Origin: Candidatus Omnitrophota bacterium
Lineage (GTDB): Bacteria; Omnitrophota; Gorgyraeia; Gygaellales; Profunditerraquicolaceae
Assembly: GCA_043814315.1 (NCBI GenBank)
Contig: JBDRKE010000010.1
Coordinates: 66,896-130,895, forward strand
Reading direction: 5' to 3'
Length of the DNA stretch: 64,000 nt
A model generated the notes under the pieces. The model saw nothing but the letters and a program-made list of their open reading frames with translations, ran no database searches and had not been told where the DNA came from. The first letter of the stretch is position 1. Each line of letters begins with the position of its first letter. A program made the translations under genes and the position numbers. Below, piece by piece: positions 1,638 through 59,734 of the stretch.

Positions 1638-2927
1638 ATGGCGAAGAAATTATGGGGAGGTAGATTCAGTAAAAAGGCTCATCCCCTGACGGAAGAGTTT
1701 ACAAAATCCATTTCGTTTGATTACAAACTGTTACATTATGATATTGCAGGGTCTCTGGCGCACGTAGGTATCCTGAAAAGCGCGGGAATCATTTCAGCTG
1801 TGGAGGCTGCAAAGATTTCCCAGGGGCTTAAGTCCATCAAGTTCGACTCTAGGCTTGCGGATTATCAAGAGGATGTCCATACTTTCATTCAGAACCAATT
1901 GCATAGGAGAATCGGGAAACTGGCGTTGAAATTACACACAGCACGCTCAAGAAATGATCAGGTCGTCTTTTCCACGAAAATGTATTGCAAGGATAACCTT
2001 AAAAAGCTAATACAGGAGATCGATGGTTTTAGCAGCGCTTTAGGAACTCAGGTGAAGAAGCAAGCTCAGCTTATTCTCCCCGGGTTTACCCATTTGCAGC
2101 ATGCTCAGCCGGTTTACCTGAAGGACTATCTGAATGCTTACGCGTTGATGCTTAACCGGGACAAAAAAAGACTGGAGCTCATCCAAAAGAATGAGAAAGC
2201 GACATTAGGAGCCGGTGCCCTTGCCGGTACACCTATTGCCGCTTTAAAATACGCTAAGTTCGCTACGGCCAATTCATTGGATGCCGTAAGCAATAGAGAT
2301 TTTGTCTTGGAAATCATCAGCGCCTTGTCTATCCTAGCCATGCATTTATCAAGGTTGGCTGAAGATTTGATTATTTGGTCCACCAAGGAATTTGACTTCG
2401 TGGAGATTGACGAGGCTTTTTGCACAGGCAGTTCTCTGATGCCACAGAAGAAAAATCCTGATGTGCTGGAGTTGGTGAGAGGCTATGCAGGAAGGCTTTA
2501 TGGTAATCTGGTAAGTGTTCTAACGATGATGAAGGGGTTACCGCTGACTTATAACAGAGATATGCAATTGGATAAGGAACCTTTGTTTGATTCATTTGAA
2601 ATCGTTTCCAGGGAATTAAAAGTATTAACCGGGCTCATCGAGACGCTTAAATTCAATGAGAAGAAAATAAAAGAACACTTAAAGGATGAGTCTTTATATG
2701 CCACTGATTTAGTGTATTATCTTGTCGATAGAAAGATTCCCTTTAAAGAGGCGCATACGGCTATCGGCAAATTAGTGAAATATTCTCTGGATCATGGAAT
2801 CCAGATCAAAGACATGCCGGAAAGTTTATTGAACAAGTTTTCGAATAAAATTGTTAAAAAAGAAATAATAAAATTATTCGATCCGTTAGTTTCTGTCAGG
2901 TCGAAAAAGTCAATTAAGAGGAAATAA
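1638..2927 (+). CDS. argH: argininosuccinate lyase
   Basis: 429 aa. N-terminus LWGGRF, the lyase-family signature GSSLMPQKKNPD, and adjacency to argG. Confidence 0.93.
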   Translation: MAKKLWGGRFSKKAHPLTEEFTKSISFDYKLLHYDIAGSLAHVGILKSAGIISAVEAAKISQGLKSIKFDSRLADYQEDVHTFIQNQLHRRIGKLALKLHTARSRNDQVVFSTKMYCKDNLKKLIQEIDGFSSALGTQVKKQAQLILPGFTHLQHAQPVYLKDYLNAYALMLNRDKKRLELIQKNEKATLGAGALAGTPIAALKYAKFATANSLDAVSNRDFVLEIISALSILAMHLSRLAEDLIIWSTKEFDFVEIDEAFCTGSSLMPQKKNPDVLELVRGYAGRLYGNLVSVLTMMKGLPLTYNRDMQLDKEPLFDSFEIVSRELKVLTGLIETLKFNEKKIKEHLKDESLYATDLVYYLVDRKIPFKEAHTAIGKLVKYSLDHGIQIKDMPESLLNKFSNKIVKKEIIKLFDPLVSVRSKKSIKRK

Positions 2928-2959
2928 GTAGCGGGTGGCTTGGACTGATGAGTATAAAA

Positions 2960-3192
2960 ATGCACCTGGCGAGGTGCGAGCGAATGGAGCTTTTAGCAAG
3001 AGGAGCTTGAGCATTTGAGGGAATCTCGAGGTCAACGCGAAGCGTTGGCAATCTCGGGACGGCTGTGGGTGTCTGAGCGACGAGCGAGAGCGCGAGGAGC
3101 GAGTTCCGCAGACGCCGAAAATGCGAAAGAACTCTTGCGTCCTGAGCGAAGCGAAGGAAAAGCGACCTGAGCGAGCAGCTTGGCAGGTGCAT
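2960..3192. repeat. 233-bp GC/purine-rich intergenic element bounded by a short inverted repeat
   Basis: Left end atgcacctg (2960..2968) is the reverse complement of right end caggtgcat (3184..3192). The interior is full of gagcgaagcgaagg / gagcgacgagcgag motifs related to the cores at 15996..16024 and 18648..18690. Confidence 0.6.
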
Positions 3193-3221
3193 GTAACCGT
3201 CAAATAGTTTGGTAAGATTCC

Positions 3222-4499
3222 ATGCACGACTTTAAATATAAAAACAATCAGCTTTATTGCGAACAGGTTAAAGTCGAGGATTTAGCCAGGAAATTCGGCA
3301 CGCCTCTTTACGTCTACAGTTACCGTACTTTGATAGACCATTTCCTTAAACTGCAACATGCTTTTAAGAGCATAAATCCCCTGATCTGTTTCTCCGCAAA
3401 ATCCAATTCCAATCTGGCTATCCTGAAAGCCCTGGTGGATAAGGGGGCGGGCCTGGATATCGTTTCGGGGGGTGAGCTTTACAGGGCGCTTCGCGTGGGT
3501 TGCCCGCCCGAAAGAATCGTCTATGCTTCCGTCGGGAAAACCGAGCGCGAGATAGAAGAGGCTATCCGCCGAAGGATCCTTTTCTTTAATGTAGAAAGCA
3601 CAGCGGAATTGGAAAATATCAACCGTATAGCCAGAAGACTCAAACGGATTACGCGCCTGGCCATACGCATCAACCCGGATGTTGAGCCAAAAACCCACAG
3701 GTATATTACCACGGGAAAATTGACCAATAAATTCGGCATAGATTTCAGAAGCGCCTATCAGATTTTAATGGTGCGCCAAGCCCTCTCGCATGTGAAAATA
3801 TCCGGTTTGCATATCCACATCGGCTCTCAGATAACAGAAAGTGCTCCTTATGTTGCCGCTATGACCAAAATGGCAGCGTTTATTGAAAAACTGAGGAAGA
3901 AAGGAATAGGCCTTGAGTATCTTAATATCGGGGGCGGCCTGGGTATTGTCTATAATCACGAAACTCCGCAAACAGCCGTCCACTTTGCCGGTAAGGTCTT
4001 GCCTTTGCTTAAAAGGACAGGTTTAAAGATTATCTTAGAGCCAGGCAGATTCATTGTCGGCAATGCCGGTATCCTGGTTACAAAAGTGTTGTATCTTAAA
4101 TCGAGCCCTAGAAAGAAATTTGTCATTGTCGATGCGGGAATGAATGACTTGATCCGGCCTGCTTTGTATAACGCCTATCATCAGATTCTGCCCTTACGCA
4201 ATACGCAATACGCAATACGCAATACGCAGAAAGTCGATATAGTGGGCCCGATATGCGAAAGTGGCGATTTCTTTGCCAAAGAAAGGCCATTGCCTCAAGT
4301 CAAAGAAGGCCAGTATCTGGCAGTCATGAGTGCGGGCGCTTACGGTTTTAGCATGGCCTCTAATTATAATTCGCGAAAGAGGCCGCAGGAAATCATGGTC
4401 TTAAAGAATAAGTCCTTTGTCATAAGAAAAAGAGAGAACGAAAAAGATTTGGTTTGTAACGAAGTCATCCCGTCTTTTCTGTTTAAGGATACAGTATGA
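3222..4499 (+). CDS. lysA: diaminopimelate decarboxylase
   Basis: 425 aa. Conserved blocks GTPLYVY, FSAKSNSN and GPICESGD, within a lysine-operon context. Confidence 0.9.
   Translation: MHDFKYKNNQLYCEQVKVEDLARKFGTPLYVYSYRTLIDHFLKLQHAFKSINPLICFSAKSNSNLAILKALVDKGAGLDIVSGGELYRALRVGCPPERIVYASVGKTEREIEEAIRRRILFFNVESTAELENINRIARRLKRITRLAIRINPDVEPKTHRYITTGKLTNKFGIDFRSAYQILMVRQALSHVKISGLHIHIGSQITESAPYVAAMTKMAAFIEKLRKKGIGLEYLNIGGGLGIVYNHETPQTAVHFAGKVLPLLKRTGLKIILEPGRFIVGNAGILVTKVLYLKSSPRKKFVIVDAGMNDLIRPALYNAYHQILPLRNTQYAIRNTQKVDIVGPICESGDFFAKERPLPQVKEGQYLAVMSAGAYGFSMASNYNSRKRPQEIMVLKNKSFVIRKRENEKDLVCNEVIPSFLFKDTV
4196..4228 (+). repeat. heptanucleotide tandem repeat (acgcaat, about 4.7 copies) inside lysA
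   Basis: Read directly: acgcaat x4 followed by acgca. It is translated in frame as RNTQYAIRNTQ, just upstream of the conserved VDIVGPICESGD block. Confidence 0.9.
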
Positions 4500-5335
4500 A
4501 AAAAATAGAGTTTACCAAGATGGTCGCTTCCGGGAATGATTTCGTTGTTGCTGAGAAAAAACAACTATCCGCTATCCGCTATCCGCTATCCGCTATAGCT
4601 AATCAGATATGCAATAGGAAGTATGGTATAGGCGCTGACGGGTTGCTTATTCTTGAGAAAACAAAGGCAGCGGATATCAGGATGCGCGTGTTTAACGCCG
4701 ATGGTTCAGAAGCCGAGATGTGCGGGAATGGGGCAAGGTGCGTCGCCCTGTGGTTGAGTTCAAAGTTCCTGCCTGCCCGGCAGGCAGGCAAAGTTCATGG
4801 TTTAGAGTATAAAATCCAAACAAAAGCCGGCATCATTAAAGCCCAAGTCAATGGCGCATTAATAAGAATAAAGCTGACTGACCCCGCCGCTATAAAATTA
4901 AACGTACCCATCAGGATAAACAAGAAAATGCTGCACGTTAATTTTGTCAACACGGGGGTTCCTCATGCCGTGATATTTGTGGAGGGGTTGGATAAAATAG
5001 AAGTTGTAAGTTTGGGCAGGCAGGTGCGTTTCCATAAGGCGTTCTCGCCCGCAGGGGCCAATGTGGATTTTGTGGAAGCCTTAAATGATCATACTCTCGG
5101 ATTGAGAACATATGAGAGGGGTGTTGAGGATGAAACTCTGGCCTGCGGCACAGGAGCGGTTGCCTCGGCTTTAGCATACGTTATGCGCTACGCGCGAAAC
5201 GCCAAACAAATAAGAGTGCATACCCAGGGCAAGGAGATATTAAAAGTCTATTTTGAGAGAACAGGCCATAAATTAAAGAATGTTTGGTTAGAAGGAAAAA
5301 CGAAGGTTATTTGCAAAGGAGCGTATTATGTTTAA
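4496..5335 (+). CDS. dapF: diaminopimelate epimerase
   Basis: 279 aa. Contains SGNDFVV and the catalytic-Cys contexts MCGNGARC and ACGTGA. Confidence 0.9.
   Translation: MKKIEFTKMVASGNDFVVAEKKQLSAIRYPLSAIANQICNRKYGIGADGLLILEKTKAADIRMRVFNADGSEAEMCGNGARCVALWLSSKFLPARQAGKVHGLEYKIQTKAGIIKAQVNGALIRIKLTDPAAIKLNVPIRINKKMLHVNFVNTGVPHAVIFVEGLDKIEVVSLGRQVRFHKAFSPAGANVDFVEALNDHTLGLRTYERGVEDETLACGTGAVASALAYVMRYARNAKQIRVHTQGKEILKVYFERTGHKLKNVWLEGKTKVICKGAYYV
4565..4596 (+). repeat. heptanucleotide tandem repeat (ctatccg, about 4.5 copies) inside dapF
   Basis: Read directly: ctatccg x4 followed by ctat. It is translated in frame as LSAIRYPLSAI. Confidence 0.9.
4768..4788. repeat. 21-nt palindrome cctgcctgcc-c-ggcaggcagg inside dapF
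   Basis: The 10-bp arms are identical to the intergenic perfect palindrome at 10562..10581. It is flanked by the direct repeat caaagttc (4761..4768 and 4789..4796) and encodes part of FLPARQAGK. Confidence 0.85.
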
Positions 5336-6203: not shown

Positions 6204-6206
6204 GAA

Positions 6207-6364
6207 GCGTAAAACGCAAAGCGAAAAGCGTAAAACTAAAGCGGAAAACTTCCCGTTCGGCTATTAAATTTATTGCGGGATCCCGCTTTTCAGAAAATAG
6301 CTTAGCGGGAAAAACGTTTTGAGCTTACAACTTTAACTTTACGCTTTGCGCTTTGAGTTTTACG
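6207..6364. repeat. modular hairpin element (cgtaaaac/gcaaag arms, gcgggatcccgc core)
   Basis: The left arm gcgtaaaacgcaaagcgaaaagcgtaaaactaaagcg is roughly the reverse complement of the right arm ...ctttaactttacgctttgcgctttgagttttacg. The core holds the 12-nt palindrome gcgggatcccgc (6285..6296) and gcgggaaaaa. Confidence 0.8.
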
Positions 6365-10476: not shown

Positions 10477-10486
10477 AATCAAAATA

Positions 10487-10610
10487 AGGTTTCATAAGGT
10501 TGCCTAAGGTTACATAATGTTCCATAAAGTTACGCCTTTGGTAACCTTACGTAACATTATGCCTGCCTGCCGGCAGGCAGGGAACCTCATGGTACCTTAT
10601 GTAACTTTAA
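10487..10610. repeat. modular hairpin element (cataaggtt-type arms, cctgcctgccggcaggcagg core)
   Basis: The left half is made of 9-10-nt units (tcataaggtt, cctaaggtt, acataatgtt, ccataaagtt). The right half holds their complements (aaccttacgt, aacattatg, aacctcatggt, accttatgt). A perfect 20-nt palindrome lies at 10562..10581. Confidence 0.8.
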
Positions 10611-10647: not shown

Positions 10648-10890
10648 ATGGCAGAAAAAGTAGTGAAGTTGGGCATCAAAAGGGAGAAAGGTTATCTCTA
10701 TTACATCGACAAAAAAGGAGATGTTTCTTGCGCCAAGATGGCTAGAGGCAAGAAAAAAGGCGGTAACCCGAAAAAAGTCGCAAAATGCGGCATCAAGAGA
10801 AAAGAGGGATACCTTTATTTTCTTGATAAAAAAGGGGATGTCTCCTGCGCCAAGATGAAAAGAGGCGGAAAAAAGAAGAAAAAAAGATAG
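10648..10890 (+). CDS. small, very basic protein made of two tandem ~38-aa repeats
   Basis: A strong SD (aggagg) lies upstream of the ATG at 10648. Repeat 1 is VKLGIKREKGYLYYIDKKGDVSCAKMARGKKKGG and repeat 2 is VAKCGIKRKEGYLYFLDKKGDVSCAKMKRGGKKKKKR. A clear terminator follows. Confidence 0.7.
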   Translation: MAEKVVKLGIKREKGYLYYIDKKGDVSCAKMARGKKKGGNPKKVAKCGIKRKEGYLYFLDKKGDVSCAKMKRGGKKKKKR

Positions 10891-12980: not shown

Positions 12981-15854
12981 ATGCATAATCATGACGCTAT
13001 TGTTATCCATGGTGCTAAAGAGCACAACCTTAAAAATATAAATCTTATCCTACCGCGCCAGAGACTGATTGTTGTTACAGGGTTATCTGGTTCGGGTAAA
13101 TCAAGCCTCGCCTTTGATACCATCTACGCGGAAGGCCAGCGTCGATTCGTGGAGAGCCTTTCCAGCTACGCGCGTCAGTTTTTAGAACAATTACAGAAGC
13201 CCGATGTCGAATATATCGGCGGATTATCGCCGACCATTGCCATTGAACAGCGTACAGCAGGCGGCAATCCGCGTTCCACGGTAGCCACCCAAACCGAGAT
13301 CTACGATTATTTAAGATTGCTTTTTGCCCGCATCGGAAGGGTTTATTGTTATCGGTGTCAACGGCCGATCAACAGACAAAGTTCCCAAGAGATTGTTGAT
13401 AGAATCATGGCCATGCCGGCCCAGACAGAGATGCAAATACTAGCTCCTGTTATCTCAGGAAGAAAAGGGGAATATAAAGAGATCTTCAGTTGGATTCAAA
13501 AATCAGGGTTCCTGCGTTGTCGCGTTGACGGTAAGATTTACGAATTGCCGTTAGATTTAAAGTTAGCAAAATATAAAATGCATCATATCGAGGTGGTCGT
13601 AGATAGATTAGTCCTAAGCCCGCAAGTAAAGAAAAGACTTACGGATTCCATCGAGACGGCACTTAAAGTAGGCAAAGGCACGGTTATTATTAGCCAGCTA
13701 GCCAGTTACCCAATTACCCTATCGAACCGGCAAACCGGCCAATCGGCCAACCGGCCAACCGGCAAACCGGCAAATCGGCCAACCGACTTAGTCTTCAGCG
13801 AACAGTACGCCTGCACAAAATGCGGGATCAGCTATGCACAAGTCCAGCCGCGCAATTTTTCTTTTAATTCACCCTACGGCGCCTGCCCGGAGTGCCACGG
13901 CCTTGGCACAAAACTAGAGTTTGATCCTGACTTAGTTATTTCGGACAGAAGCAAATCCATCCAGGAAGGAGCGCTTGAGCCCTGGAAGAGGGGAGGCAGG
14001 GGCTACATCCTCTATTATCGCTGGCTCATCCGGGAGCTGTCTTACAAGATGCATTTTGATTTAGACACTCCGTTTAAGAACCTGAGAAAGGAAGTGCAGA
14101 AGGCCGTACTTTTTGGGACGGATGAAGAGGTCAACGGCAAGCCCTTCGAAGGCGTGATTCCCCATCTGGAAAGGTTATTCCGGGAAACGGATAGCGATTA
14201 TTTAAAAGAAGAGATATCCAAATTCATGTCGAGCCTGAGTTGTTCCTTGTGCCAGGGGGCCAGACTTAAAAAGGAAAGCTTGTCTGTGAAGATTCAAGGC
14301 AAGAATATTTGGCAGATCGCCCAGATGTCTATCAAAGAAGCCAGAGGCTTCTTTAAAGGTCTGGATTTAAGCGAAAAAGAAAAAACGATTGCGCATCAGG
14401 CCTTGAAAGAGATTGTCCAGAAATTACAGTTTTGCGTGGATGTGGGGTTGGAGTATTTAACGCTGGACAGAAGAAGCTCGACGCTTTCCGGCGGAGAGGC
14501 GCAGAGGATTCGCCTGGCCACTCAGGTTGGATCCGGCCTTGTCGGAGTGTTGTATGTATTGGATGAGCCCAGTATCGGCCTGCACCAAAGGGACAACAAT
14601 AAATTGCTTTCGACATTGGAGGCGTTACGGGATCTGGGCAACACGTTGATTGTTGTGGAGCACGACGAGAGTACAATTCTTTCCTCTGACTATATCGTGG
14701 ATTTGGGGCCGGGAGCTGGCCGGCACGGCGGGGAAGTCGTATTCTGTGGCACAAAGGAAGAATTATTAAGGCATCCGGAGTCGCTGACGGCGAAATATTT
14801 AAGGCGCGAATTAAAGATCGAGATCCCTAAGAAGAGAAGGCCCTGGCAAGACAGGAAATTCCTTGTGGTTACCGGAGCCAGAGAGCACAATCTTAAAAAC
14901 ATAGAAGTGAAATTTCCTCTGGGTCTTTTTATCTGCGTGACGGGAGTTTCTGGTTCGGGCAAGTCCACTCTGGTCGATGAGATCCTGTTCAGAAGCCTCG
15001 CGCAAAAACACTACAAATCCAAAGATAAACCGGGGCTTCACGATAAGATTACAGGTATAGAGCTTATCGATAAAGTGATTGTCGTGGATCAGTCTCCCAT
15101 AGGCAGGACTCCCCGCTCGAATCCCGCAACCTACACAGGAATGTTTGGCCCTATCAGGGATTTATTCAGCAAGCTTCCCGAAGCCAAGGTGCGCGGATTT
15201 AAACCCGGCAGATTTTCTTTTAACGTAAAAGGGGGCCGTTGCGAGGCGTGCTCCGGGGATGGCATCAAGAAAATCGAGATGCATTTTCTTCCGGATGTGT
15301 ATGTGAAGTGCGATATCTGCAAGGGGAACAGGTTCAACGAATCCACCCTGGAAGTCAAATTCAAAGGCCAATCCATAGCGGATGTCTTAAGGATGACCGT
15401 AGAGGAGGCCTTGGACTTATTTGGCAATGTGCCAAAGATAAAGAACACGCTGGGCTATCTTTATGACGTAGGCTTGGGGTATATGACGCTGGGGCAGGCC
15501 GCCACAACGCTTTCCGGCGGAGAGGCACAGCGCATTAAGTTATCTAGCGAGCTGAGCAAGCGCTCTACGGGAAAGACCCTGTACATTTTGGATGAGCCGA
15601 CAACGGGATTGCATTTTGCCGATGTAGACAAGCTGCTTTGCGTGCTCCAAAGGTTAGTCGACAAAGGCAACACCGTGGTCGTTATCGAACATAACTTAGA
15701 AGTCATTAAATGTGCTGATTATATTATCGATCTTGGGCCTGAGGGGGGAGATAGAGGCGGAGAATTGGTGGTAGCGGGGACTCCCGAAGCGTTGCTTCGC
15801 TGCAAGGCGTCGTTTACGGCCGATGCCCTGAGAAAGGTGTTGAAGAGGCGCTGA
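12981..15854 (+). CDS. uvrA: excinuclease ABC subunit A
   Basis: N-terminus MHNHDAIVIHGAKEHNLKNI, two Walker A motifs (GLSGSGKSS and GVSGSGKST), two LSGGE signatures and zinc-finger Cys pairs. The ATG at 12981 is preferred over the longer ORF from 12894. Confidence 0.95.
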   Translation: MHNHDAIVIHGAKEHNLKNINLILPRQRLIVVTGLSGSGKSSLAFDTIYAEGQRRFVESLSSYARQFLEQLQKPDVEYIGGLSPTIAIEQRTAGGNPRSTVATQTEIYDYLRLLFARIGRVYCYRCQRPINRQSSQEIVDRIMAMPAQTEMQILAPVISGRKGEYKEIFSWIQKSGFLRCRVDGKIYELPLDLKLAKYKMHHIEVVVDRLVLSPQVKKRLTDSIETALKVGKGTVIISQLASYPITLSNRQTGQSANRPTGKPANRPTDLVFSEQYACTKCGISYAQVQPRNFSFNSPYGACPECHGLGTKLEFDPDLVISDRSKSIQEGALEPWKRGGRGYILYYRWLIRELSYKMHFDLDTPFKNLRKEVQKAVLFGTDEEVNGKPFEGVIPHLERLFRETDSDYLKEEISKFMSSLSCSLCQGARLKKESLSVKIQGKNIWQIAQMSIKEARGFFKGLDLSEKEKTIAHQALKEIVQKLQFCVDVGLEYLTLDRRSSTLSGGEAQRIRLATQVGSGLVGVLYVLDEPSIGLHQRDNNKLLSTLEALRDLGNTLIVVEHDESTILSSDYIVDLGPGAGRHGGEVVFCGTKEELLRHPESLTAKYLRRELKIEIPKKRRPWQDRKFLVVTGAREHNLKNIEVKFPLGLFICVTGVSGSGKSTLVDEILFRSLAQKHYKSKDKPGLHDKITGIELIDKVIVVDQSPIGRTPRSNPATYTGMFGPIRDLFSKLPEAKVRGFKPGRFSFNVKGGRCEACSGDGIKKIEMHFLPDVYVKCDICKGNRFNESTLEVKFKGQSIADVLRMTVEEALDLFGNVPKIKNTLGYLYDVGLGYMTLGQAATTLSGGEAQRIKLSSELSKRSTGKTLYILDEPTTGLHFADVDKLLCVLQRLVDKGNTVVVIEHNLEVIKCADYIIDLGPEGGDRGGELVVAGTPEALLRCKASFTADALRKVLKRR
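13725..13786 (+). repeat. degenerate octanucleotide tandem repeat (cMaaYcgg, about 7.5 units) inside uvrA
   Basis: aaccgg caaaccgg ccaatcgg ccaaccgg ccaaccgg caaaccgg caaatcgg ccaaccga, translated as NRQTGQSANRPTGKPANRPT. The same unit occurs non-coding at 51302..51332 and flanks the mtaB insert. Confidence 0.9.
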
Positions 15855-15874: not shown

Positions 15875-18520
15875 ATGGGTAAATCACAAATCCCAATTTC
15901 CAAATCCCAAACAAATCCAAAATTCAATGCTTCGACTGCGCTTGCCATTGACACCGAGGCGGCCCTTCGTTTCGTTTCACTCGCTGTGGGTCGTCCCGAG
16001 CGAAGTCGAGGGACGAAGCCGAGGTGCCAAATCCAAAAAATTCAAATTGGCAGATTACTTGTTGTTTTTTTTGTGCTTGTATTTGCTTCGAACTACGAAC
16101 TTCGAACTCCGTACTTTGCTTATGCCCAGGATCCCAAAGAGGAAGAGGCACTCTTCGTTGCAAAGAAAGCCTTTGATGATGGTTTCTATGATGTCAGTCA
16201 GAACTTATTAGAGCGATTCCTCATTCAATACCCGCGTTCTTCAAAGACAGCGGAAATTCATCTATTGATGGGGCGTTCTTTTTTTTACCAAAATAGATTC
16301 TTGGATGCGCTTTCCAAATTTGAAGAACTTTTGGGCCAGCCCCAGGCTAAAAACCTTAAAGATGCCCTTTTTTACTGGATAGCCGAAGTCCACTTCAAGG
16401 GCAATAGTTTCAATAAGGCGGCCAGTTTTTACAAAAAGATTATTGATGAATTCCCGTCTTCTTCCTATTTAGGCGCTTCCTATTATTCATTGGCGTGGTG
16501 TTACTTCCAGGAAAGAAAATTTGAAGAGGCCCTCGCTTATTTCAAGATCATCGAAGAAAGGTACCTTCAAGAATCCTCTTTTCAAGATGCACCTTTAAAG
16601 ATCATCGAGTGCCTTTACAATTTAAAAGATTATGAGGGACTCAAAAAAAAGGTGAGGTCTTACTTGAATCTTTATCCCAAGAGCGCAGAGCAATCGCCTT
16701 ACCCCTATTTTTATTTGGCTGAAGCTGATTATTACCTCGGTAATTTTCAAGAAGCGATCGAAGAATATTCTTCGATTCTTAAGAGCAGCCTTGATCCCAA
16801 GGCGCAGGCGCTCTCGAAGATGGGTATGGCATGGTCTTATCTTAAATTGAAAAAATACAAAGAGGCAGAAAGCGCATTTTTGGATATCAAAGAAGGACAC
16901 CTTGAGAAAAGAAGCCAGGAGATCTTGCGGCTGGGTGAGGCTATCCTCATGGTTGAGACGAACCGCGTCAACGAAGCCAAAGGCATTTATGAGCAACTGC
17001 TGAGCCGTTCGGACGATCCCCTTGTTTTAATTCAGGCCTATCTGGGGAAAGCAGACGCCCTTTATAACCTTGCAGAATATCATGAGGCGATCAGCGTATA
17101 TAAAGAGGCCTTGAGTAAGTTTAGCCCCGGGACCGTTCCTCAGGAGATCATGGATAAAATACACTATAGCCTTAGCTGGACCTATTTAAAGCAGGGGGAA
17201 TTCAAGGAGGCCATCAAAGAGTTTCAGAGAATCGTCAAAGAAACAGACGATAAAATCGTTAAAGTCAGCGCGCTTTGTCAAATAGGTGATGCGTATCAGG
17301 ATTCCGGAGATTATACCGAAGCCCAGGAAGCCTATTCCGTCATATTAAAGGATTACCCCGATAATTTCTATAGCGATTATGTGCAATACCAGTTAGGCCT
17401 GACGCTGCTTAAAGCCTCTAACTATGAAGGGGCTATTATGAGCTTTCAGGCCCTCAAAAGAAATTTTCCCCAATCCAAACTTTTAGACGACGCCACGTAC
17501 GCGCTTGGGTTAGCCTATTTCCAAAGACAGGATTATAATTCCAGCCGTGTCCTCTTTGAAAGTTTTGAGCAGGAATTCAAGGATAGTCCACTTAAGCCCC
17601 AGGCCCTTTATCTTCTTGGCACCTGTTTCTATAACCTGCGTGAATTTGCCAAGGCGATTGAGGTGTTTAAGAATGTCATCAGATTGTATAGCCAGGATAC
17701 CGATTTGGTCCAGAAGGCAGAATATGAAATAGCCGATTGTTATGACCAGATGGGAGACGAAAAAGAGGCGGTGAACCGATTCAATATCTTGCGTTCCAAA
17801 TATCCTGATTCGAGCCTGACCCCCGAAGTCATGTGGTGGCTGGGAGAATACTATTACAAACATAACGAATTGGAGTTGGCGCGCCGGTACTTTTCGACCC
17901 TCATCAGAGACTTTCCCAAAAGCCCGCTGGTCGCGGATTCCTATTATGCCGTAGGGACAAGTTTTGAAGAGGAATCCAGGCATGAGGAGGCAATAGAGAA
18001 TTTTCGGAAAGTCATGGATTTGGGCAAAACCGACCTTAATGGCCAGGCTGCTATCGCTATCGCAGACATATACGTCAAACAGGAAAACCTGGAATCAGCC
18101 ATCAAGGCTTATCAGGAGATTAGCAGAGAATATCCGAATCTGACCCATTTGATTTATCCCAAGATGGCCCAGCTTTACTACAAAACTGCAGATTTCAGTC
18201 AAGCTTTAAATTTTTATCGCAAGAGCCTTGATGTGGTATCGGTAAGAGAAATGGGGAATATCCATTTTAAAATAGCCGAAGTGTTGCAAGCACAGGGAAC
18301 TCTGGATGAGGCTATAGAGGAATACCTGAAAGTCGCCTACCTTTATCCAGAGAATGACTTGCTCGCCATTAAGGCCCTTTTAAGAGTAGCTCAGATCTAT
18401 GAAGATAAAGAGAATTTTAAAGAGGCCGCGCGTATCTATGAAAAAATAGTTTCAATAGACGCTGAAGAAGCCAAGTATGCACAAGAGAGGATAGACTGGA
18501 TAAAGGTACACGTAAAATAA
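15875..18520 (+). CDS. large TPR-repeat protein (probably exported); N-terminus uncertain
   Basis: About 800 aa of tandem TPR-like repeats (the YbgF/CpoB-style pattern A..Y..A....g.y.eA). The first ~70 codons of the ORF read through an intergenic repeat element. No canonical start lies just before the hydrophobic LLVVFFVLVFAS segment. Confidence 0.7.
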   Translation: MGKSQIPISKSQTNPKFNASTALAIDTEAALRFVSLAVGRPERSRGTKPRCQIQKIQIGRLLVVFFVLVFASNYELRTPYFAYAQDPKEEEALFVAKKAFDDGFYDVSQNLLERFLIQYPRSSKTAEIHLLMGRSFFYQNRFLDALSKFEELLGQPQAKNLKDALFYWIAEVHFKGNSFNKAASFYKKIIDEFPSSSYLGASYYSLAWCYFQERKFEEALAYFKIIEERYLQESSFQDAPLKIIECLYNLKDYEGLKKKVRSYLNLYPKSAEQSPYPYFYLAEADYYLGNFQEAIEEYSSILKSSLDPKAQALSKMGMAWSYLKLKKYKEAESAFLDIKEGHLEKRSQEILRLGEAILMVETNRVNEAKGIYEQLLSRSDDPLVLIQAYLGKADALYNLAEYHEAISVYKEALSKFSPGTVPQEIMDKIHYSLSWTYLKQGEFKEAIKEFQRIVKETDDKIVKVSALCQIGDAYQDSGDYTEAQEAYSVILKDYPDNFYSDYVQYQLGLTLLKASNYEGAIMSFQALKRNFPQSKLLDDATYALGLAYFQRQDYNSSRVLFESFEQEFKDSPLKPQALYLLGTCFYNLREFAKAIEVFKNVIRLYSQDTDLVQKAEYEIADCYDQMGDEKEAVNRFNILRSKYPDSSLTPEVMWWLGEYYYKHNELELARRYFSTLIRDFPKSPLVADSYYAVGTSFEEESRHEEAIENFRKVMDLGKTDLNGQAAIAIADIYVKQENLESAIKAYQEISREYPNLTHLIYPKMAQLYYKTADFSQALNFYRKSLDVVSVREMGNIHFKIAEVLQAQGTLDEAIEEYLKVAYLYPENDLLAIKALLRVAQIYEDKENFKEAARIYEKIVSIDAEEAKYAQERIDWIKVHVK
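15881..16050. repeat. modular repeat element (aaatcccaaa arm, gagcgaagtcgagggacgaag core)
   Basis: A/C-rich arm at 15881..15927, a GC-rich core with cgaag-periodic inverted segments at 15960..16024, and a second short A/C arm at 16027..16050. Confidence 0.75.
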
Positions 18521-18536
18521 CATATAAGACAACATG

Positions 18537-18731
18537 ATAAATCCCAGATCCAAAATAAATCCCTGCCTGTGGCAGACAGGCAAAATCCCAAATCCAAAAC
18601 TATTTGGGATTTTGAAATTGGCACTTCGGGTTCGCCTCAGTGCCAATGGTGAGCGAAGTCCTGAGCTTGTCGAAGGACGAAGTCGAACCGTGGGATTTGT
18701 TTGGTAGTATTGGTATTATTTGGATTTTGTC
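18537..18731. repeat. modular hairpin element (aaatcccaaa / tttgggattt arms with two GC-rich cores)
   Basis: Left arm ataaatcccagatccaaaataaatcc, a gcctgtggcagacaggc hairpin, aaaatcccaaatccaaaac/tatttgggattttg, the core ggtgagcgaagtcctgagcttgtcgaaggacgaagtcgaac, then gggatttgtttggtagtattggtatt. Confidence 0.8.
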
Positions 18732-18753
18732 TGATTAACAGAGGAGGATAAGG

Positions 18754-29401: not shown

Positions 29402-29557
29402 CTCGGGATAATTTGCTGACCCGTAAGAGCGGGCAAATTAATTCGTTAACCCGTTATAGCTGGCGAATAATTTACTGAGCGGTTATAGCGGGGAAATTAA
29501 TCCGCTGACTAGTTATAGCAGACGGATAATTTGCTGACCCGTAATAGCGGGCAAATT
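29402..29557 (+). repeat. tandem array of five ~30-nt hairpin units directly upstream of a pilin SD
   Basis: Each unit has the form aatt-X5-...gtta/tagc...-X5'-aatt, and the outer stems differ between units (ttgc/gcaa, ttcg/cgaa, tccg/cgga). The first and last units (29406.. and 29524..) are identical except for one base. The array ends 1 nt before the aggagg SD. Confidence 0.85.
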
Positions 29558-29568
29558 AGGAGGAAAAG

Positions 29569-29964
29569 ATGAAAAGAGGTTTTACGTTACTAGAACTGAT
29601 CATTGTCATCATCGTCGTCGGTATATTAGCTACCCTTGGTTTTGTCCAGTATACAAGCATGATTGAAAAAGGCCGAAAAGCAGAGGCCAGAAGCATTTTG
29701 GGGACGTTACGTCAGTTAGAGGTTGTGCGGTATCAGGAAACAGGAGCTTATAGTAATTTGGCTGGCTTAAGTACGGGTGTACCTGACGGCGCATGTGCAG
29801 CCACACATTATTTTTTCTACGCCTGCGCCGCTGGAACAGGCACCTGCACAGCTACTAGATGTATAGGTGTTGTAGGTAAACAGCCAGGCGTTCCTGCCGC
29901 AGATGTCTATACCATTACGTTGAGTGTTGACGGAAATTTCAACGGAACAGGCAATTGGCAGTAA
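29569..29964 (+). CDS. type IV pilin-like protein (paralog 1)
   Basis: MKRG|FTLLELIIVIIVVGILA prepilin motif. The C-terminal domain has four Cys. Confidence 0.85.
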   Translation: MKRGFTLLELIIVIIVVGILATLGFVQYTSMIEKGRKAEARSILGTLRQLEVVRYQETGAYSNLAGLSTGVPDGACAATHYFFYACAAGTGTCTATRCIGVVGKQPGVPAADVYTITLSVDGNFNGTGNWQ

Positions 29965-33547: not shown

Positions 33548-33686
33548 CAAATCCCAAATCCAAAATCCCAAATCCCAAACAAATCCCAAACACCAATTTC
33601 CAATATTTCAAACTTTAATGTTTCGGTCATTGGTCATTGGGGCATTGGTGCTTATTTGGAATTTGGTGCTTGGTACTTGGAATTTA
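33548..33686. repeat. modular hairpin element (aaatcccaaa.. / ..ttggaatttggtg arms)
   Basis: A/C-rich arm at 33548..33614 and complementary G/T-rich arm at 33626..33686. The right arm lies within the reading frame of the downstream gene. Confidence 0.8.
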
Positions 33687-35098: not shown

Positions 35099-35243
35099 TA
35101 AATTCAAATGTCAAAATCCAAAAAGAATCCCTGCCTTGCCGGCAGGCAGGCAAGGCAGGGAGGCAAATGTTAAAACAGAAGATTCATCGTTTTGAATTTT
35201 GTGCTTTGTGCTTATTTTGAATTTTGAGCTTTGTCATTTGAAT
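35099..35243. repeat. modular hairpin element (aattcaaatgtcaaaatccaaaa arm, ccctgccttgcc-ggcaggca-ggcaaggcaggg core)
   Basis: A 12-bp palindromic stem core lies at 35129..35160. The right arm ttttgaattttgtgctttgtgcttattttgaattttgagctttgtcatttgaat complements the left arm. Confidence 0.8.
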
Positions 35244-35253
35244 CTTAATTCTT

Positions 35254-54596: not shown

Positions 54597-54708
54597 GGTT
54601 AAATCCCTATTTAAAAATCCCAAACAAAACATTTGGATTTGGGATTTGTTTGGTAGTATTGGGATTTTGGATTTGTTTGGGATTTGGGATTTGGAAATTG
54701 GGATTTTC
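54597..54708. repeat. modular hairpin element (aaatccc.. / tttgggattt.. arms)
   Basis: Short A/C arm at 54601..54630 and a longer G/T arm at 54631..54708 that contains gggatttgtttggtagtattgggatt (54641..54666). Confidence 0.8.
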
Positions 54709-57895: not shown

Positions 57896-58022
57896 ATAGT
57901 CGCTTCTTTCCATCCGTTATCCTTTCGTTATCGTCTTTAGATTCAAAAATCTCAAAGTGAAGGGGGGTATATTTTAAAATTCAAAATTAAAAATCCAAAA
58001 TTCAAAAATAAAGGAGAAATAA

Positions 58023-59567: not shown

Positions 59568-59734
59568 TAAATCCAAAATCCAAATATTACCAAATCCAAA
59601 ATAAATCCCAATCTCTCCCGCATAAGCGGGATCCCGCTAGACGTTACAAGTTGCGCGGGAAAAATCCCAAATAGTTTTGGATTTTGGATTTGGGATTTGT
59701 TTGGTAGTATCGGTATTAGTGGGATTTGGGGTTT
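59568..59734. repeat. modular hairpin element (aaatccaaaa / ttttggattt arms, gcgggatcccgc core)
   Basis: Left arm aaatccaaaatccaaatattaccaaatccaaaataaatccc. The core is cccgcataagcgggatcccgc...gcgcgggaaaaa, with the palindrome at 59626..59637. The right arm is agttttggattttggatttgggatttgtttggtagtatcggtatt. Confidence 0.85.

Follow-up and report, generated by a model that had tools for sequence, protein, structure and literature searches.

We show that two heptanucleotide tandem arrays lie in frame inside lysA and dapF, the adjacent genes of diaminopimelate (DAP) decarboxylase and DAP epimerase, in a 64-kb stretch of a Candidatus Omnitrophota metagenome-assembled genome (MAG), which was analysed at its full length and is called the window below. 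From our analysis it would be reasonable to regard both tracts, at a probability of roughly 0.65, as in-frame members of a family of short-period arrays which is dispersed in Omnitrophota, evolves in concert and is filtered by selection. The same enzyme loops recur as array sites in many relatives, the units found there are diverse, related arrays are dispersed over the genomes, insertions are polymorphic between relatives, loop length is conserved and no frameshifted allele occurs among the loci that we read.

The lysA tract (4195-4228) is a perfect run of 34 nt, TACGCAA in 4.9 copies, and the dapF tract (4565-4596) a perfect run of 32 nt, CTATCCG in 4.6 copies, both established from the sequence and with Tandem Repeats Finder; 337 nt separate them (Table 1). 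The original prediction, made on the letters of this DNA, had reported the first as acgcaat at about 4.7 copies at 4196..4228, which is a rotation of the same unit, and the second as ctatccg at about 4.5 copies, with exactly our coordinates and a spacing of about 340 nt. Its peptides, RNTQYAIRNTQ and LSAIRYPLSAI, match the translations of both open reading frames (ORFs) exactly, and its naming of the hosts as adjacent lysine-pathway genes holds as well. The LysA orthologs carry Pfam PF02784 and PF00278, with 2p3e as the best solved structure of DAP decarboxylase (E=5e-126), the DapF orthologs carry PF01678 and match solved DapF structures at E=2.5e-37, and these domains and structures, together with the NCBI names, identify the two ORFs. 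A chance origin of the tracts is excluded: of period-7 tracts that reach 17 nt or more the window holds 7, where 200 first-order Markov simulations gave a mean of 0.065, the longest of those in the window measures 34 nt against a maximum of 18 nt in any simulation, and 7 is the anomalous period over the whole window. MAG assemblies can collapse repeats, which is a general concern and points to nothing specific here, and an assembly or sequencing artefact has a practically negligible probability, because tracts of 32-34 nt lie well within one read, equivalent arrays are present in dozens of independent assemblies (NCBI, ENA, JGI) and both ORFs stay in frame.

In LysA the array fills a loop between two beta-strands directly before the GPICESGD motif, bounded by YHxILP on one side and VD(V/I)VGPICES on the other. 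The AlphaFold2 (AF2) model places it between strands 321-324 and 335-341, with a predicted local distance difference test score (pLDDT) of about 76-78, and the solved 2p3e is 3 amino acids (aa) shorter exactly at this site. We aligned 120 LysA orthologs and inspected about 90 Omnitrophota loci at the DNA level; where loci have to be told apart below, they go by L and a number. Taking as criterion a perfect lag-7 or lag-8 run with at least 10 matches, we found perfect 7- or 8-nt arrays in this loop in 14/81 Omnitrophota loci and in none of the 72 loci from Nitrospirota, Desulfobacterota and other phyla, while elsewhere in lysA such a run occurred in one of 1210 control windows of 60 nt. The periodicity is visible in the proteins too, as the loop peptide is identical to itself at a lag of 7 aa in 38 of the 120 orthologs and at any other lag in at most 5.

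The units that occupy this single loop vary widely. Besides TACGCAA they include ACGCTAT (L083, L169), ACGCACA (L084), ACGCAGG (L103), GGACGAT (L085), AAAGTCA in 4.7 copies (L088), GCCGCAA in 4.1 copies (L100) and the octamer GACCAGCC in 4.6 copies (L020). TACGCAA itself recurs in lysA of L164 (4.6 copies, 76% aa identity) and of L015 (4.7 copies, 61%), and the DNA flanking the array in L164 has diverged from the window at many positions; the closest relatives, L161 and L167, have no array in lysA. In several lineages the arrays keep ACG in one phase, and the remaining unit positions are specific to the lineage and uniform throughout each array. Uniform units within arrays, differences between lineages and a fixed phase of ACG together form a signature of concerted evolution. 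Loop length is held all the while: it is 17 aa in 68 of the 120 orthologs, and the classes longer by about 7 aa carry the palindrome that is described below.

DapF offers three such places. Site 1, where the CTATCCG array of the window resides, lies in the AF2 model between beta-strand 14-20 and helix 31-39, and perfect lag-7/8 runs occupy it in 11 of 65 loci, with CTATCCG, GTCAAAG, TCAAGTT, ACAGAGT, GAAGTCA and the octamer CGTTATCC as units; the peptide KLSAIRYPLSAIA is found there in many DapF orthologs. The array of L169, whose DapF is 65% identical, coincides with that of the window in unit and copy number (CTATCCG in 4.6 copies), and L161 carries young two-copy octamer duplications at this site. 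Further repeat-collecting loops lie near residues 90 and 225 (sites 2 and 3). At site 3 the window has a stretch that is probably a degenerate relic of a CTATACG-type array; the homologous position of L169 holds a perfect CTATACG array (4.4 copies from the sequence, scored as GCTATAC in 4.6 copies), and many DapF orthologs read AIRYTLYA there. As a separate observation, dapF site 1 of L109 contains an in-frame insertion of another GC-rich repeat, of the type GTCCTGAGC...GTCGAAGGAC, whose translations resemble SFDKLR or LSEAEG; in the window, copies of this type lie between genes at 18620-18690 and 3135-3180.

The proposal that the tracts are insertions in variable loops stands in one half. The loops are variable, but the arrays mostly replace loop sequence that was already there: against the closest relatives lysA gains a net 9 nt and dapF site 1 has 30 nt in place of 27 nt, a net gain of 3 nt.

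A clean insertion is present at dapF site 2, where a GC-rich palindrome of exactly 21 nt separates the window from both closest relatives in the alignment. Folded as DNA, it has a stem of 9 bp (-10.9 kcal/mol, z=-3.7); its block is the lowest-confidence part of the DapF model (pLDDT 58), and solved DapF structures have a gap of 7 aa at this position. Arrays and palindrome map to loops, and solved homologues are shorter or gapped exactly there. The palindrome occupies the site-2 loop in about 14 of 120 DapF orthologs, has further copies in the window at 10562-10582 and, in an extended form, at 35130-35160, and reaches with a relaxed pattern a density of about 24 per Mb in Omnitrophota loci against 6 per Mb in control loci. 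L089 carries five copies within lysA and dapF, and all genic copies in L089 and L168 are flanked by heptamer units. We tried to explain the two CAAAGTT heptamers around the dapF copy of the window as a 7-bp target-site duplication and do not favour this model, because the empty site of the relatives already reads CGCAGTT|GAAGGTT and the insertion is exactly 21 nt.

Heptamers are not multiples of three, so the reading frame moves whenever a single unit is gained or lost, and it was proposed that the tracts are contingency loci in which such a change toggles lysine and DAP synthesis within a population. The hosts of contingency loci are typically surface, restriction-modification or other dispensable, environment-facing functions. 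The tracts resemble such loci in having a slippage-prone unit, not a multiple of three, within an ORF, and the dapF tract lies near the 5' end (codons 24-34); heptanucleotide repeats control phase variation of HMW1A in Haemophilus influenzae (PMC8262952, PMC2651432). They differ in that lysA and dapF have housekeeping roles (as has uvrA, treated below), the arrays are short with about 5 copies, and neither copy-number polymorphism nor off-frame alleles were found. None of 89 lysA and none of 83 dapF sequences is frameshifted, all of them being single in-frame matches, and strains identical at 99.9% (L161/L162/L163 and L164/L165/L166) show no array indel, though this is a weak test, with few pairs, some of them chosen by identical protein. 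Unit and copy number, along with loop length, are kept in relatives with 76% and 61% LysA identity and 65% DapF identity; orthologs have homologous residues and mostly the same 17-aa loop, which by the refuting condition of the original prediction itself largely speaks against a switch, and a frameshift in lysA would remove the catalytic C-terminus. We therefore regard a contingency switch for lysine and DAP synthesis as very unlikely. Orientation is constrained as well: all copies of the family that we could place in lysA and dapF are in the sense direction, and the reverse complement of CTATCCG contains TAG.

Evidence for dispersal comes from several directions. In many Omnitrophota the C[T/A]AT[A/C]CG family is also found between genes, on either strand, frequently in inverted pairs or immediately upstream of a start codon, and the intergenic elements of the window share the inverted-arm architecture of these arrays. 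This supports the suggestion of the original prediction that the genic tracts share their origin with the short-period arms seen in intergenic elements, as the lysA/dapF family also forms intergenic arms in relatives and the anomaly of period 7 extends across the whole window. Within the 2-64 kb that were read per genome the family appears at several sites per locus in L029, L113, L168 and L169. Three sites are occupied in L169, dapF site 1 by CTATCCG, dapF site 3 and the lysA loop each by CTATACG. Sites 1 and 3 of dapF in L168 hold array-palindrome-array composites that are nearly identical and enclose one palindrome variant, CTGCCTTGCCGGCAGGCAGG. AAATCCC-type arrays occupy at least three sites in the window.

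Unit similarity was judged by pairwise statistics within and between genomes, and single-linkage clustering was found to chain unrelated units. Pairs of arrays with at most one mismatch make up 20% of the pairs from the same locus, taken more than 100 nt apart, and 6% of those from different loci; one of 2000 label permutations reached the observed difference in similarity. Outside long ORFs lie 39 of 88 arrays, though at most 7% of bases are found there. In 662 kb of control loci from Nitrospirota and Desulfobacterota there are 6 perfect period-7 arrays with 3 copies or more (examples are in L047, L048, L057, L059 and L142), none of period 5 and at most a few of periods 6 and 9, and because of this excess the underlying process probably extends beyond Omnitrophota. 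In length, perfect period-7 tracts have a second mode at 31-34 nt (4.4-4.9 copies) with almost none above 36 nt, in a sample that is biased towards the lysA and dapF loops, and the two longest octamer arrays both measure 37 nt (4.6 copies).

One may see in all this purely local microsatellites, which would arise by independent slipped-strand duplication of 7-8 nt in tolerant loops with no dispersal, conversion or mobility, so that shared units would stem from coding constraints and from ancestry shared at each site. The two-copy octamers of L161, an array of L085 that starts inside conserved flanking codons, the very diverse repertoire of units and the requirement for stop-free, loop-compatible peptides, which restricts the units that are possible, all suit such a view. 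It has difficulty with one unit family at three sites of L169, with the nearly identical composites and identical palindrome variant at two sites of L168, with the C[T/A]AT[A/C]CG arrays on both strands of intergenic DNA in many genomes and with units that are more alike within than between genomes in the permutation analysis; slippage also leaves unexplained why period 7 exceeds periods 6 and 9 in coding DNA. We give local duplication alone a small, though real, chance.

The encoded peptides could also be adaptive in themselves, for instance if a periodic loop affected how LysA and DapF oligomerise or are regulated. A template LPLR-x-T-xxxx-R-x-T-EKV is indeed widespread among LysA orthologs and the loop precedes the catalytic CESGD motif. 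Against this possibility, the peptides are highly diverse and simply follow the DNA unit in its three reading frames; the same DNA family appears in contexts as unrelated as LysA, DapF and intergenic DNA, and closest relatives and solved homologues have short plain loops. Adaptive peptides appear to us distinctly improbable, if a shade less so than the contingency switch.

Somewhat better, but still improbable, is the idea that the DNA or RNA sequence and not the peptide is selected, the arrays being cis-acting signals such as sites for a periodic RNA- or DNA-binding protein that tunes how the lysA-dapF-dapA transcript is translated or how stable it is. Between the window and L164 or L169 the DNA of the arrays has changed less than its flanks, and related arrays stand directly upstream of start codons in other genomes. 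Against it, we know of no binding protein, lineages have entirely different units at one and the same site, the closest relatives L161 and L167 do without a lysA array, the arrays have no secondary structure and Rfam gives no match in the lysA-dapF region. A comparable role has been proposed for the TAACTGA repeats of Beggiatoaceae (PMC4679880).

The linker of UvrA, further along the window, repeats the pattern in a third enzyme. Here an octamer array lies between the UvrA_inter and UvrA_DNA-bind domains and amounts to an insertion of 78 nt against the closest relatives; at the same site L169 has two heptamer arrays and L168 a different insertion. We aligned 14.7 kb of the window three ways with L161 and L167 (MAFFT, in a fast mode), and against these relatives, at 77-78% nucleotide identity, 4 of 5 coding insertions are arrays or the palindrome.

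Returning to the dispersed family that we favour, we propose the following course. Arrays with a period of 7 nt, less often 8 nt, would spread through the genome accompanied by the 21-nt GC-rich palindromic mini-insertion, and within genes would survive in permissive places alone, namely the beta-hairpin loop of LysA, the three loops of DapF and the UvrA linker, and there in forms which are free of stops in all three frames and leave a net length that is a multiple of three. The units of an array would then change together, with flanks, phase and loop length staying fixed. As to how arrays spread, are replaced and become homogeneous, slipped-strand misalignment and/or gene conversion, with other family arrays of that genome as donors, is in our inference the most likely route; the palindrome may be a short insert, mobile or templated, for which arrays are the landing place. 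The encoded peptides would be passengers and not adaptations, presumably neutral, and LysA and DapF would remain functional enzymes.

Several points weigh against this proposal. Our analysis identified no enzyme or mechanism for the spread of arrays. Some arrays start inside conserved flanking codons, as CGTTATCC of L085 does within codons for V-V-I, which fits a purely local duplication. The explanation does not account for the perfection of arrays in which slippage by a single unit would be lethal, for the period of 7 nt (less often 8) or for the length mode of 31-34 nt. All loci were anchored on lysA, which makes for a biased census of array-carrying genes, and the neighbour-joining tree of LysA is star-like and poorly resolved, so that inheritance with concerted evolution and recurrent insertion are not cleanly separable.

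Table 1. Arrays, palindrome, intergenic element and host genes in the window
Feature	Position	Strand	Remarks
lysA, diaminopimelate decarboxylase, 425 aa	3222..4499	+	ORF, translation; hosts the first array; NCBI MFH1457870.1
Heptamer array TACGCAA x4.9	4195..4228	+	encodes residues 325-336 (RNTQYAIRNTQ)
dapF, diaminopimelate epimerase, 279 aa	4496..5335	+	ORF, translation; hosts the second array, the palindrome and the probable relic array; NCBI MFH1457871.1
dapF site 1, perfect array CTATCCG x4.6	4565..4596	+	encodes residues 24-34 (LSAIRYPLSAI)
Left flanking CAAAGTT heptamer, dapF site 2	4761..4767	+	relatives have CGCAGTT or TCAATTT there
GC-rich 21-nt palindrome CCTGCCTGCCCGGCAGGCAGG	4768..4788	+	in frame in dapF, LPARQAG, residues about 91-98
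Right flanking CAAAGTT heptamer, dapF site 2	4789..4795	+	sequence, alignment
Probable degenerate CTATACG-type relic, dapF site 3	5174..5196	+	GCATACG TTATGCG CTACGCG CG, peptide AYVMRYAR
Intergenic element, arms ATAAGGTTAC x5 and inverse around palindrome CCTGCCTGCCGGCAGGCAGG	10484..10610	+	absent from closest relatives
Octamer array of AACCGGCC type, about 12 units	13692..13785	+	in frame, UvrA linker; without counterpart in L161, L167
Imperfect CGAACTA heptamer array	16086..16116	+	N-terminal part of tetratricopeptide repeat (TPR) protein

The window contains a number of other short-period elements. The cgaacta-type repeats noticed earlier inside the TPR gene at 16089..16116 are indeed there, beginning three nucleotides upstream. 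Intergenic elements with arms and their reverse complements occur at 6205-6355, 10484-10610, 18540-18740, 35100-35250, 54631-54706 and 59569-59698; their arms have short periods of 7-10 nt and often surround a GC-rich stem-loop. At 1599-1622, 15881-15922, 33548-33603 and 57976-58007 there are AAATCC(C/A) arrays, GGGATTT when read from the other strand, directly upstream of ribosome-binding sites and start codons. A tandem repeat of 29/59 nt in about 5 copies (29408-29558), with CCCGTTATAGCGGGC-like palindromes, stands immediately upstream of a gene (29569-29964) with an N-terminal methylation, pilin-like, motif. The small lysine-rich ORF at 10648-10890 is internally duplicated, with GYLYY(I/F)LDKKGDVSCAKM present twice, and its homologue in L161 lacks about 25 nt between the duplicate copies in comparison with the 99.9%-identical L162; this difference, the only indel beyond single bases between the two, is unrelated to heptamers.

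As to the wider setting, the nearest sequenced relatives of the source organism belong to the SM23_72 group (84% LysA identity), which is fully syntenic with the window over argG-argH-lysA-dapF-dapA-dapB and onward to uvrA, and long ORFs are nearly all on the + strand of the 64 kb. The 295-nt intergenic region upstream of lysA (2927-3222) has GAGCGAG-type repeats and is shorter in the relatives; at gathering thresholds Rfam matched nothing in it and detected no lysine riboswitch, and over the window it reported a single tRNA, with no riboswitch or other RNA near lysA or dapF. In the protein database the LysA of the window (MFH1457870.1) is filed under an unrelated cluster representative of 57 aa, and because of this it is missed by a homology search. 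An exact-sequence look-up of the LysA and DapF of the window likewise gave no match; for LysA this reflects the database clustering and is not a pseudogene call, and the clustering artefact could mislead other analyses.

What makes this case surprising for repeat biology is that the repeats sit inside universally conserved enzymes, so that for each array hundreds of genomes offer an orthologous site that can be aligned; array birth, unit turnover, palindrome insertion and decay are therefore directly measurable, which gives a comparative handle on the old question of heptamer repeats. Repeats that are not multiples of three can persist for long in essential genes if they reside in permissive loops, and such tracts should not be annotated as phase-variable. 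The arrays produce lineage-specific loop peptides and indels that may mislead alignments and pseudogene calls in MAGs. We may even suggest, quite tentatively and well below the dispersed family in likelihood, that Omnitrophota possess an active DNA-level mechanism which writes or copies heptamer arrays of about 4.5 units and the 21-nt palindrome into the genome, with genome-specific unit families and repeated rewriting of the same essential-enzyme loops; it would perhaps operate also in other anaerobic sediment phyla with a period-7 excess. If true, such a mechanism would be novel in kind, a minimal mobile element or a writer of repeats that works in 7-nt steps, and the lysA, dapF and uvrA loops would make a natural comparative assay for the spread of repeats of the STRR (short tandemly repeated repetitive) and SDR (small dispersed repeat) types.

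These two are among the closest parallels. STRR heptanucleotides of heterocystous cyanobacteria (Calothrix, Nostoc), which PMC4692102 mentions, are tandem units of 7 nt in few copies, with a few unit families dispersed over the genome, mostly between genes. The arrays of the window and of other Omnitrophota are likewise 7-nt tandem repeats of few copies and are enriched in intergenic DNA, as the 39 of 88 above indicate, the lysA and dapF tracts being exceptions. They differ in host and unit sequences and in lying in frame in conserved housekeeping enzymes, at orthologous loops over many lineages, with units that turn over in concert. The SDRs of Nostocaceae, reportedly described by Elhai et al. 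in 2008, are said to be hairpin-forming mini-insertions, 21-27 nt long in Nostoc, which are embedded in tandem heptamer repeats. In size and form the palindrome of the window resembles them, having 21 nt, a 9-bp hairpin and polymorphism between relatives, and the embedding in heptamers has its counterpart too, since the dapF palindrome stands between two CAAAGTT units and the genic copies of L089 and L168 are flanked by heptamers. Copies in Omnitrophota differ in lying in frame inside enzyme loops, and SDRs were reported to be absent outside Nostocaceae (PMC5861425). From repetitive extragenic palindromic elements (REP/REPIN-RAYT) the palindrome of the window differs in form, as it starts with CCTG in place of a GTAG/CGTC end and sits inside genes.

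Palindromic elements of Rickettsia (RPE), which Ogata et al. are said to have described in 2000, are reportedly selfish repeats of about 100-150 bp located in frame in protein genes. Palindrome and arrays of the window share with them the in-frame position at structurally permissive sites of genes; RPEs have no tandem heptamers, and here the palindrome measures 21 nt, the arrays 32-34 nt, and the phylum is another one. The literature that we searched has no paper on tandem repeats in Omnitrophota, and over-representation of heptamer repeats in bacteria is known with almost no detailed literature (PMC4692102). G-rich GGGNATC heptamers of Xanthomonas and Nostoc prefer about 4 copies and the antisense strand at up to about 50 bp upstream of ORFs, and show under-representation within coding DNA (PMC4692102). 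The AAATCCC (GGGATTT) arrays of the window fit them in position and strand, and the tract-length mode of 31-34 nt is alike, whereas the units in lysA and dapF, which are not rich in G, permit no quadruplex. TAACTGA direct repeats of Beggiatoaceae, cyanobacteria and Bacteroidetes are placed upstream of start codons with occasional genic copies (PMC4679880), and there too heptamers stand directly before start codons and the stop codons of the unit decide which orientation persists in ORFs. TAACTGA is a single unit, with genic copies at the ends of proteins or in hypothetical ORFs, whereas Omnitrophota have many units in internal loops of conserved enzymes. New to these systems are the phylum, the in-frame residence of STRR- and SDR-like repeats within essential enzymes, at loops that are orthologous, and their concerted evolution.

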